Below are positions 32,982 through 36,587 of a stretch of DNA of 39,905 bases, in pieces. Position 1 is the stretch's first letter. The number at the start of each line of letters is the position of its first letter. Made by a program: the position numbers and the translations under genes. The notes under the pieces are model-generated. The model was not told where the DNA came from. It did not search any database and saw only the letters and a list, made by a program, of their open reading frames with translations. Source of the DNA: an uncultured Nitrososphaerota archaeon (GTDB lineage Archaea > Thermoproteota > EX4484-205 > DTQO01); assembly GCA_964631995.1 (NCBI GenBank), contig CAZWAU010000037.1:1-39905 (forward strand), written 5' to 3'.

Positions 32982-33011
32982 GGTAGAAGCGCCAACTGAG
33001 TGGTCACTGGG
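32982..33011 (+). other. 5' strand of the pre-23S processing stem with BHB motif
   Basis: GGTAGAAG pairs with CTTCTACC (36580-87). Central helix is CGCC (32990-93) / GGCG (36573-76). The 5' bulge is AAC (32994-96). A ~15-bp helix follows, 32997-33011 with 36558-36572. Confidence 0.8.
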
Positions 33012-33226
33012 TGGAATACGTCCGACATGATACGCCACCTAGAGAATGGCTTGGCTCAGGCGCCGAAGAAGGGCGTGGCAAGCTGCGATAAGCCTCGGGT
33101 AGGAGCAAGTATCCTGCGATCCGAGGATCCCCGAATTGGATACCTTCCGGCGGTGCGCGCAAGCGTGCCGTTGGAACACCCGAAAGGGTGAGGTAACCCA
33201 CCGAAAGGAAACATCTGAGTAGGTGG

Positions 33227-33258
<32 letters not shown>

Positions 33259-34948
33259 ACGGCGAGTGAAAAGGGAAAAGCCCAAACCGAACCGCGCGTC
33301 GAAAGGCGCGTGGGATGTGGGGTTGAGGACCGGACCTCCTCTCTGCCTGCGAAGTCGAAGAGGCCTGGAAAGGCCCACGAAAATGGGTGATAGTCCCGTA
33401 GACGTTGGCCGGCGTGAGTTGGGTCTGAGTTCCTGAGTACTGCGCCTCGGATATGGCGCAGGAAGCTGGGAGCTATTCACTTCCAAGGCTAAATACGTCC
33501 TGAGACCGATAGCGCACCAGTACGGTGACGGAAAGCTGAAAAGAACCCCGAGAGGGGTGTGAAAAGAGCCTGAAACTAGGTGGTTACAGACGTTCACGGC
33601 CTGAAAGGGTTTGAATCCCCCAAAAGTTTCCGGTCGAGAGGCTGGAAGCGATGGGGGGCTACCAGGGTCGTGAGTTTCGTCTTGAAACACGAGCCGGGGA
33701 GTTTATGGCCGTGGCAAGCCTAAGGGGTACTATCCCCGTAAGCGTAGGGAAGCCAACTAGCCTGCAACCGCCTTAACGGCGGCGAGAGGCGGGGTAGCGA
33801 TTGCCCGTAGTCACGGCCTTAAGACTAGAAACCGAACGATCTAATCCTGGGCAGGGCGAAGCCGGGCGAAAGCTCGGTGGAGGCTCGAAGGGGTCCTGAC
33901 GTGCAATTCGGTCCTCAGACCTGGGATTAGGGGACAAAAACCAATCTAGTTCGGTGATAGCTAGTTCCTTCCGAAATGGATCTCAGTCCAGCCCGCCCGG
34001 AGGAGGTCGGCAGGGTAGAGCACTGATCGATGGGCAAGGCCTCGAAAGAGTCCACCCGTCTTTCAAACTCCGAATCTGTCGACACCGTAGATGGGCGGAG
34101 ACGGGTTCCAGGGGGTAAGCTCCTGGACCGAGAGGGGAACAACCCAGACTAGGGTTAAGGTCCCTAAATGCTGGCTAAGTGTTATTCGAAAAGGCGTCTC
34201 GACTCTCAGACAGCGGGAAGGTAGGCTTAGAAGCAGCCATCCTTTAAAGAGTGCGTAACAGCTCACCCGCCGAGAGTCAAGGCCCTGAAAATGGACGGGG
34301 CTCAAGCCAGCTGCCGATACCCTAGAGCGCAGCCTGAGGCTGCGTCTGGTAGGAAGGCGTCCGAGTTGGGCCGAAGCTGGGCCGTGAGGTCCGGTGGACC
34401 GACTTGGATTGCAGATCCCGGTGGTAGTAACAGCTAAGACAGGTGAGAATCCTGTCCGCCTGAAGGACAAGGGTTCCCCGGCAACGCGTCGTCAGCCGGG
34501 GGTTAGTCGATCCTAAGGCCTCGTTTAACATGCGAGGTCGAAAAAGGGAAGCCGGTTTACATTCCGGCACCAGGGGGGTACACGCGGTAACGCAAGCCCT
34601 CACGCTGACGCTTCGGGGCAGGTTGAGCGGGGCTGTCGCTCCGTCTAACTGTCCAAGCCTGGGAAGTACCGTAAAGGTGAGAACTAGGCGAAGGCAGGAA
34701 TGGCTTGCCGTTAGGCGAGTTCAGCTGGGCCCTGGAGCCATGGAAAAGGCGTGGGGGATGGATCCCCTCTGATCGTACCAAGATCCGACACTGGTGTTCC
34801 TGCGTGAGAAGCGCAAGGCGTCTCGGGGTATTCCACGGCGAGGGAACTTGGCAATCTAGCCCCGTAACTTAGGGATAAGGGGTGCCTGAGGCTGGGCTTC
34901 GGCTTGGTCTCAGGTCGCAGTAACTAAGGGGTCCCGACTGTTTACTAA

Positions 34949-35332
34949 ACGGGCAAAGGCACCGGCTTAATGTTCGAGATGGAAAAAAGGTAGAATTCCC
35001 CGGGGACGGAAGTTGCAAGAAAATCTGTGCCTGCTGCGTTCCAACAGACCGGACGAATTCGAAGATTTTTCAGAAATAGCAAAAAGCTCCAATGCGAGAA
35101 TAGATCGGCAGAACTTCGGATTCCTTTGGCTCAGAGATTCGTTGCGGATTTGTTTGGTGCAGAGGCACGCTGAAGATGGTGTCGTTGTAAGAATTCATAG
35201 CTTTACAGAATGCATGAAACCTGGCGCGGAGGGCTCTCGCATCTTCGCGCTCGGATTGGGTGTTGAGTTTTCCTAGAAAATCTGAGAAGTTTGTTCCGTC
35301 TCAAAGGCCAAAGGTGCGCTTGCCCGAGTAAC
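34949..35332 (+). other. 23S rRNA intron A (384 nt)
   Basis: Canonical hBHBh' motif: outer helix TGTT/AACA, central helix TACT/AGTA, bulges AAA (34947-49) and ACA (35331-33), inner helix CGGGCAA/TTGCCCG. Splicing gives GACTGTTTACTAA|AAACACAGG, the same length as the universal GACUGUUUAAUAAAAACACAGG. Confidence 0.85.
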
Positions 35333-35595
35333 AAACACAGGGAGCCGCTAGTCCGAAAGGATGTGCACGGCTCTTGAATCCTGGCCAGTGGCGGTATCTG
35401 AATCCCAGGTTCAACTGGGCCAAGGACCGCTAAACGCCCGAGGTAACTCTGACCTTGTTAAGGTAGCCAAATGCCTTGTCGGGTAAGTTCCGACGTGCTT
35501 GAATGGAGCAACGAGGGCCCCGCTGTCCCCGCCTGGATCCCGGTGAACCCACATAACGTGGCTGCACAGTCCACGATCTCCCAACGGGACAAGAA

Positions 35596-35625
35596 ATTCT
35601 CTTAGAAAACCTAGGAGAACTTGCC
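35596..35625 (+). other. 23S rRNA intron B (30 nt) between E. coli-equivalent positions 2060 and 2061
   Basis: Central helix CAAG (35590-93) / CTTG (35620-23), bulges AAA (35594-96) and CCG (35624-26), inner 9-bp hairpin TTCTCTTAG-AAAAC-CTAGGAGAA, outer helix GGA/TCC. Splicing gives AAGAA|GTCCACGTGGAGCTTTACTG, the same length as AAGAAGACCCCGUGGAGCUUUACUG. Confidence 0.8.
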
Positions 35626-36127
35626 GTCCACGTGGAGCTTTACTGCATCCTGTAGCTGGGATGTGGTCGCGGATGCAGAGTGTAGGCGGGAGCCGTTACA
35701 CTCAACCCTTCCGGGGGTTGGGAAGGCGACAATGGAACACCGCCCGTCAGTGACCTATTCTCTTACCGGGTGAAAGCCCGGGACAACTATTGGTGGGCAG
35801 TTCGGCTGGGGCGGCCCCCTCTTGAAAAGATATCGAGAGGGCCCTAAGGTCAGCTCAGACGGAACAGAAACCCGTCGTAGAGTGCAAGGGCAAAAGCTGG
35901 CCTGATTCGGTCCTGCAAAGTAGAGGACCGAAAGGCGAAAGCCTGGCCTAGCGATCCTCCATGTCCTTATGGATAGGGGCTGGAGGTGACAGAAAAGTTA
36001 CCCCGTGAGTAATTGGCTCGTCGCGGGCAATAGTTCATATTGACCCCGCGGTTTGGTACCTCGTCGTCGGCTCTTCCCATCCTGGCGGTGCATAAGCCGC
36101 CAAGGGTAGGGCTGCTCGCCCGTCAAA

Positions 36128-36223
<96 letters not shown>

Positions 36224-36557
36224 TTATCTGTTGGGAGTGCTGGTCGCTTGAGGGGAAGGTGTCCACAGTACGAGAGGAACTGGGCGCCGCGGCCTCCGGT
36301 TTACCGGTTGTCCGACAGGGCAACGCCGGGCAGCTGCGCCGTCTTCGATAAGACCTGAAAGCATCTAAGGTCGAAGCGAATCCCGAAAATAAGCGGCCAA
36401 TCCGAGAAACCATGGCAGACCTGGTAACAGGCCTGCTCTCTCGGACGAGGGCTGGGATAGTAGATCCCGTTGATAGGTGGGGGGTGTACGCGCGAAGGCT
36501 TCGGCCGACGCGTTCAGCCCGCCCATACTAATCGCCCAAGGTGTCGGGCGGAAAAAA

Positions 36558-36587
36558 CTCAGTGGCCACTCGGGCGAAACTTCTACC
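36558..36587 (+). other. 3' strand of the pre-23S processing stem with BHB motif
   Basis: Complement of 32982-33011. The 3' bulge is AAA (36577-79), between GGCG and CTTCTACC. Confidence 0.8.

Follow-up and report, generated by a model that had tools for sequence, protein, structure and literature searches.

A 30-nt insert between positions 2060 and 2061 of an archaeal 23S rRNA gene as a probable spliced BHB mini-intron

The window analyzed here, a stretch of DNA of 39,905 nt, carries on its forward strand an archaeal 23S (LSU) rRNA gene of 3534 nt, compared with about 3036 nt in relatives and 2987 positions in the Rfam model. A full-length LSU alignment of the window with five complete relatives and E. 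coli rrlH reveals three inserts found in the window only, of 384, 30 and 51 nt, and the gene is enclosed by a pre-23S processing stem. The features are as follows:

33018-36551, + strand: archaeal 23S (LSU) rRNA gene, host of the inserts (Rfam RF02540 LSU_rRNA_archaea, 2621 bits, model positions 1-2987).
32982-33003, + strand: 5' strand of the pre-23S processing stem, with the BHB bulge AAC (32994-32996) and the cut after 32995 (BHB geometry check).
34949-35332, + strand: sister intron 1, 384 nt, near E. coli 1784/1785 (full-length alignment, BHB geometry check).
35596-35625, + strand: 30-nt probable mini-intron, missing in 25 relatives and E. coli, identical in the metagenome contigs L108, L109 and L111, exactly absent from contigs L112 and L116.
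36128-36178, + strand: sister intron 3, 51 nt, near E. coli 2564-2567 (BHB geometry check; about 36126-36176 in the full-length alignment).
36566-36587, + strand: 3' strand of the pre-23S processing stem, with the BHB bulge AAA (36577-36579) and the cut after 36578 (BHB geometry check; junction in contig L112).

The host genome is a MAG of 294 contigs that is 83% complete; the congener G001 is 77% complete. Relatives with the same flanking rRNA sequence, as retrieved with an rRNA pattern, are labelled either Candidatus Brockarchaeota or Thermoproteota; the host lineage is related to Brockarchaeota and lies outside Thermoproteales. A search with the Hef helicase protein brought up distant bacterial matches only.

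The gene was found in samples from hot springs, sediments and microbial mats. Between 50 and 77% of its words are present in DNA runs from several studies, and 23-44% in the RNA runs X10-X15 and X18, which were not counted as splicing evidence. In six relatives (G004, G009, G012, G021, G033 and G034) the UAAGGUAGC region of domain IV, around E. coli 1925-1931 and corresponding to about 35454-35461 of the window, is interrupted by large inserts of about 180-1140 nt. The window is insert-free at this site, which is probably one of the classical positions of rRNA introns.

Between 35580 and 35640 the window reads GGGACAAGAA, followed by the 30 nt and then by GTCCACGTGGAGC. The same region of the LSU genes of 25 relatives was aligned with the window using MAFFT, and all 25 show a clean 30-column gap, reading AAGAA|G(T/A)CC where the window has AAGAA, the 30 nt and GTCC. 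The alignment with E. coli rrlH places the insert between A2060 and G2061, which bears out the site named in an earlier note on this DNA. Shifting the boundary by one base in either direction produces a mismatch to the universal A2060 or G2061, so that the boundaries of the insert are unambiguous. Comparison with an LSU covariance model, which the note had proposed, gives 51 nt in the window around the site for 19 model positions (Rfam sub-alignment). The elements listed in the note are all found in the sequence where it had placed them; its reading of the downstream exon as GACCCC has to be corrected to GUCCAC. Position 2062 of the E. coli numbering (window 35627), usually A, is U in the window and in most relatives from the order (L003-L023), which read GAAGTCCC. 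The 30-nt insert is too short to code for a protein. Two other classes of element were ruled out: an intron with a LAGLIDADG homing endonuclease, given 30 nt without an ORF, and a self-splicing group I intron. Group I introns possess a ribozyme core (P3-P9) and are typically longer than 200 nt, and an Rfam scan of the window returned LSU rRNA and SRP RNA only.

The insert and the exon nucleotides around it can be arranged into the following elements:

35587-35589, + strand: outer BHB helix, 5' exon strand GGA (E. coli 2052-2054), pairing with 35627-35629 (BHB geometry check; rrlH numbering).
35590-35593, + strand: central 4-bp helix, exon strand CAAG (E. coli 2055-2058), pairing with 35620-35623 (sequence, BHB geometry check).
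35594-35596, + strand: 5' three-base bulge AAA, predicted cut after 35595 (A2060) (BHB geometry check).
35597-35619, + strand: inner hairpin, with a 9-bp stem (35597-35605 and 35611-35619) and the loop AAAAC (35606-35610) (fold, BHB geometry check).
35620-35623, + strand: central 4-bp helix, intron strand CTTG (BHB geometry check).
35624-35626, + strand: 3' three-base bulge CCG, predicted cut after 35625, exon 2 starting at G35626 (G2061) (BHB geometry check, rrlH numbering).
35627-35629, + strand: outer BHB helix, 3' exon strand TCC (E. coli 2062-2064) (BHB geometry check).

Together they form a canonical hBHBh' motif with an outer helix of 3 bp, a central helix of 4 bp, an inner helix of 9 bp (eight Watson-Crick pairs and one G-U) and the bulges AAA and CCG, in agreement with the earlier description of the bulges, the CAAG/CTTG helix and the 9-bp hairpin. 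Cuts after the second base of each bulge yield AAGAA|GTCC, the sequence of the relatives and of the sister contigs lacking the intron; the junction 35595|35626 that had been proposed coincides exactly with both the BHB cuts and the gap in the relatives. The cut rule itself is validated in the organism by the circular junction that contig L112 shows at the processing stem.

A loose BHB geometry is found 212 times on the + strand, versus a mean of about 189 in shuffled sequences. Since it is this frequent by chance, the motif alone proves little. On the other hand, the probability that BHB cuts fall by chance on the boundaries defined by homology is roughly 5e-5 per position-and-length pair, and the exact match between cut and boundary recurs four times, for all three inserts and for the processing stem. 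The motifs of the two sister introns are canonical as well. The 384-nt intron has the outer helix TGTT/AACA, the central helix TACT/AGTA and the bulges AAA/ACA, with the junction 34948|35333; the 51-nt intron has the outer helix CCC/GGG, the central helix GTCA/TGAC and the bulges AAC/AAG, with the junction 36127|36179; the cuts in the processing stem are 32995|32996 and 36578|36579. The evidential weight lies in this exact coincidence of the BHB cuts with independently defined boundaries, and not in the motif itself. Compared with shuffled sequences the local fold has a z-score of -3.9 (0 of 200 shuffles as good). The MFE structure of the region is a near-variant and not the BHB conformer (-22.1 vs. 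-14.5 kcal/mol at 37 °C), so that folding energy was not used as an argument for the motif; such a discrepancy is usual for BHB motifs that are recognised by protein.

Metagenome contigs were scanned with a junction pattern allowing 0-30 nt between the exons, and ten contigs were returned. Three of them (L108, L109 and L111) contain the identical 30 nt and share 99.0% identity with the window over 689 shared exon columns. Five (L110, L113, L114, L115 and L117) come from relatives of 91-94% identity and do not contain the insert; two of these are contigs of 29 and 41 kb and therefore represent genomic DNA. L116 shares 98.8% identity with the window; the 30 nt are missing from it, and a variant of the 384-nt intron is kept. 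The 384-nt intron is exactly absent from L112, L113 and L117. In L114, L115 and L116 an intron occupies the domain IV site of the 384-nt intron (equivalent to window 34964-35294), its first ~15 and last ~39 nt being conserved and its interior divergent or of another length.

The remaining contig, L112, originates from the IMG data set Ga0124948 and consists of 3096 nt of rRNA only, with no flanking genomic DNA. Over the 689 shared exon columns its exons are 99.9% identical to L108, L109 and L111 and 99.1% identical to the window. It lacks exactly the 384-, 30- and 51-nt inserts of the window as well as the extra 39- and 261-nt inserts of L111, and is unbroken across all five splice junctions and across a circular junction. 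At the latter, located at positions 100-140 of its reverse complement, window position 36578 is joined to 32996, the 3' end of the 23S running straight into its 5' end. The flanks of this join share only about 4 nt, so that an overlap made by the assembler cannot explain it, and the join is the exact product predicted from cutting and ligating the BHB of the processing stem. After ligation, the stem would be capped by a GCGAA loop closed by G36573-C32996. The junction, which matches the circular 23S rRNA reported for archaea (PMC12918454), would belong either to a circular pre-23S or to a mature circular 23S. From the circular junction and the rRNA-only content we infer that L112 is derived from RNA, in which case all introns, including the 30-nt one, have been removed and the exons ligated; with this origin, the contig supports the absence of the 30 nt from an RNA product with joined exons. 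From about window 36335 on, where domain VI has a variable helix, the final ~100 nt of the L112 reverse complement diverge sharply from both the window and L111, which may reflect a chimeric join made in a conserved stretch, or else a strain difference or variable region.

We estimate at about 90% the probability that 35596-35625 is a spliced archaeal BHB intron of the pre-23S rRNA. Among the alternatives, the one that survives best keeps the intron and the expectation of splicing, and takes L112 for an intron-less DNA allele. The variability of intron content among strains (L116 lacks the 30-nt intron, the window the 39- and 261-nt ones) and the divergent tail of L112 would fit such an allele. 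It explains neither the junction from 36578 to 32996, whose two sides have just 4 nt in common, nor the missing genomic flanks, and it implies the loss of five introns from a sequence 99.9% identical to L111; we regard it as very unlikely.

The chance is slimmer still that the 30 nt are an expansion segment, kept in the mature 23S as an extra hairpin in the peptidyl-transferase ring. Lineage-specific expansions do occur elsewhere in archaeal rRNAs. Here, however, the insert separates the universally conserved A2060 and G2061, sequences with 98.8-99.9% exon identity lack it with otherwise identical flanks, the BHB formed by the flanks is perfect and its cuts fall precisely on the boundaries, and L112, composed of rRNA only and bearing the circular junction, does not contain it. 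Moreover, in the established ribosome structure G2061 and A2062 line the peptidyl-transferase centre and the tunnel entrance, and it is therefore implausible that a 30-nt hairpin retained between A2060 and G2061 would be compatible with a working catalytic centre. The gap in the relatives, the BHB cuts and L112 thus all uphold the preference for an intron over an expansion segment expressed in the earlier note.

Equally slim is the chance of a removal without ligation, by a process like that of bacterial RNase III, leaving the 23S fragmented at 2060/2061. Fragmented rRNAs are known from other organisms, and RtcB was not detected in either MAG of the genus, neither as a PF01139 match in a six-frame Pfam search nor by tblastn. 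These MAGs are only 83% and 77% complete, however, and RtcB is present in all seven relatives that are at least 90% complete; we provisionally treat its absence as a matter of MAG incompleteness. Against a fragmented product stands the continuity of L112 over the five splice junctions and the circular junction, for which ligation is needed, and no precedent is known to us for a catalytic ring nicked between A2060 and G2061. Finally, an assembly artefact or chimeric insertion, for which one might invoke the fragmented MAG (294 contigs) and a congener contig that stops just short of the 5' splice site, is effectively refuted already by the occurrence of the same 30 nt at the same place in three contigs from other metagenome data sets and by the 50-77% of the gene's words recovered from DNA runs of several studies.

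Returning to the spliced BHB intron, we searched the genome for the enzymes concerned. The EndA domain tRNA_int_endo (PF01974) gives two matches above the cut-off, on contigs C52 and C237 (85 and 81 bits), and the two paralogous genes are compatible with an EndA of the two-subunit (alpha-beta)2 type. The RtcB frame of three genus g4 relatives measures about 984 aa, including a large internal insert, possibly an intein. In the proposed mechanism, exon nucleotides 2052-2064 (E. coli) and the intron would fold into the hBHBh' in the nascent transcript. Such folding could take place while the remote partner strands for helices 73 and 74 are still to be transcribed, as the motif needs about 45 nt to be transcribed and the mature partners lie 400-550 nt downstream. 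In the mature rRNA, the same exon nucleotides are part of helix 73, the central ring and helix 74, according to the established secondary structure. The tRNA-splicing endonuclease EndA would then cut at 35595|35596 and 35625|35626, after the second base of each 3-nt bulge, presumably early and probably co-transcriptionally; an RNA ligase would join A2060 to G2061, the 30-nt hairpin being discarded, and only after ligation would the strand enter the peptidyl-transferase ring, by refolding. Within this scheme, we infer which enzyme acts, when it does so and what becomes of the excised 30 nt. The intron has most likely no function of its own and would be a tolerated, recently acquired passenger.

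Other inserts at 2060/2061 were sought with two patterns in a species-representative set of 185,579 genomes. The first, a 10-40-nt insert between CGGGRNRAGAA and GWCCMYGTGGAG, gave 68 matches, none of them in rRNA and all attributable to chance; the second, in which any base but A stands before the downstream exon, gave no match and is blind to introns ending in A and to exon variants. Within the limits of these two patterns, no other LSU gene was found to contain an insert at this position, and the 2060/2061 intron is confined to one species-level clade (99% identity). It is a recent gain, at a site and in a lineage previously without a reported example.

Intron content also varies inside this clade. 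The 30-, 39- and 261-nt introns are all present in L111; the window has the first without the other two, and L116 has the 39-nt intron without the 30-nt one, so that strains carry the 30-nt intron, an intron in the loop of helix 71, or both. The helix-71 mini-intron, 39-42 nt long, is located at L111:4802-4840 (after window 35488) and recurs in L108, L109, L110, L113, L114 and L116; the window, L115 and the congener G001 do not have it. It forms a canonical BHB with a conserved CCTAGAA...TCTAGG hairpin core, and its central helix shows covariation between exon and intron (GTAA/TTAT in L111, GCAA/TTGC in L116). It is the older of these introns, since it is found both in close strains and in relatives that are only 91-94% identical. 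The local alignment score between the two introns is reached by 0.02-0.24% of shuffled sequences, including those that preserve the hairpin; the same comparison reveals no such likeness in the 51-nt intron of the window or in a tRNA intron of the window. The helix-71 site lies upstream of the 2060 site at a distance of about 107 nt, and the 2060 site supplies the (C/U)AAG tetramer required for the intron's 3' end to make the central helix. The likeness between the two target sites is not significant, 7-11% of LSU windows scoring as well and a global scheme giving no signal. Judged from these comparisons, the 30-nt intron might be a young copy of the helix-71 intron produced by intragenic transposition, a tentative idea to which we give somewhat less than even odds. 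In the window's own genome, blastn-short with the 30 nt matches the intron itself only, and the TTCCTAGAA motif is mildly enriched (27 occurrences vs. a median of 7), with no further copies of the hairpin.

Two further observations concern the same gene. An insert of about 260-270 nt interrupts the domain V strand CCUCG(A/U)(U/C)GUCGGCUC in L111 (5414-5674, 261 nt), L109 and L113, at a site equivalent to about 36062/36063 of the window (E. coli about 2500) where the window and L112 have none; a strict BHB check finds no canonical BHB within 5 nt of its aligned boundaries. In the congener G001, contig C47 ends 4 nt before the 5' splice site (G001:C47:1 corresponds to window 35591) and the rest of the 23S is missing from the assembly, which is consistent with an assembly break at a presence/absence polymorphism of the intron.

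The element is thus of a known type, a BHB mini-intron, and what is new are its site and its host lineage, its small size and strain-level polymorphism being notable as well. It extends the range of protein-spliced rRNA mini-introns beyond Thermoproteales and Desulfurococcales and adds an intron site at the heart of the peptidyl-transferase ring. Splicing must precede, or be coupled to, the folding of helices 73 and 74, which provides a handle on the order of archaeal ribosome assembly. Strains of about 99% rRNA identity differ in their content of the 30-, 39- and 261-nt introns, and this polymorphism, together with the likeness to the helix-71 intron, makes the population useful for studying the gain and loss of BHB introns; if the transposition reading is true, it would be an rRNA counterpart of the tRNA-intron transposition of Thermoproteales, caught at the level of strains. 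In practical terms, the intron splits a conserved 23S segment and thereby disturbs rRNA annotation, the design of primers and probes, and assembly.

Several known systems can be compared with this intron. Bacterial 23S intervening sequences take the place of peripheral helix tips and are excised by RNase III without re-ligation. The present element resembles them as a short helical insert in a 23S gene that is absent from the mature rRNA, and differs in interrupting a universally conserved single strand and in the joining of the exons seen in L112; an intervening sequence of the bacterial type, with fragmented rRNA, was ruled out by the continuity of L112 across the junction. With archaeal pre-rRNA processing stems the intron shares the motif and the cut rule, both found at the gene's own stem, whose predicted circular junction occurs in L112. 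The two reactions differ in their outcome, that at the stem freeing the whole rRNA and that at the intron excising an internal 30 nt. The formation of circular 23S RNA at the BHB of the processing stem has been documented across archaeal phyla (Shi et al. 2026, PMC12918454).

Closer in kind are the classical BHB introns of 23S genes. Like these, the 30-nt intron would be spliced by proteins, belongs to the introns of domains IV and V of the 23S rRNA, and has a BHB made partly of exon nucleotides, so that the rRNA must refold after splicing; unlike them it has only 30 nt, no ORF and a different position. Such introns were reportedly described by Kjems and Garrett in 1985 and 1991 in Desulfurococcus mobilis, Staphylothermus marinus and Pyrobaculum. 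They are mostly hundreds of nt long and often encode LAGLIDADG homing endonucleases, the small 23S introns of S. marinus measuring about 50-60 nt. As cited in PMC2738675, 23S BHB introns have been known since that of Desulfurococcus mobilis.

The BHB introns in tRNA genes of Thermoproteales are of the same size class, have the same splice motif and presumably use the same enzymes. Similar sequences at different sites imply that they have been copied (Fujishima 2010, as summarised in Yoshihisa 2014, PMC4090602). The present case differs in that the host is an rRNA, that donor and acceptor are about 107 nt apart in one gene, and that only one pair is seen. The nearest parallel is offered by the 16S genes of Thermoproteales, in which short (<50 nt) hairpin BHB introns occupy 7 of 13 intron loci (Jay & Inskeep 2015, PMC4496867), in agreement with the earlier remark that short rRNA introns are rare and described mainly in that group. 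Both are non-coding hairpins of a few tens of nt with a BHB at the exon-intron junctions, both are located in highly conserved rRNA segments, and in both presence varies among close strains. The intron described here is distinguished from the 16S mini-introns by its host gene, the 23S, by its site at 2060/2061 in the peptidyl-transferase ring and by its Brockarchaeota-related host.
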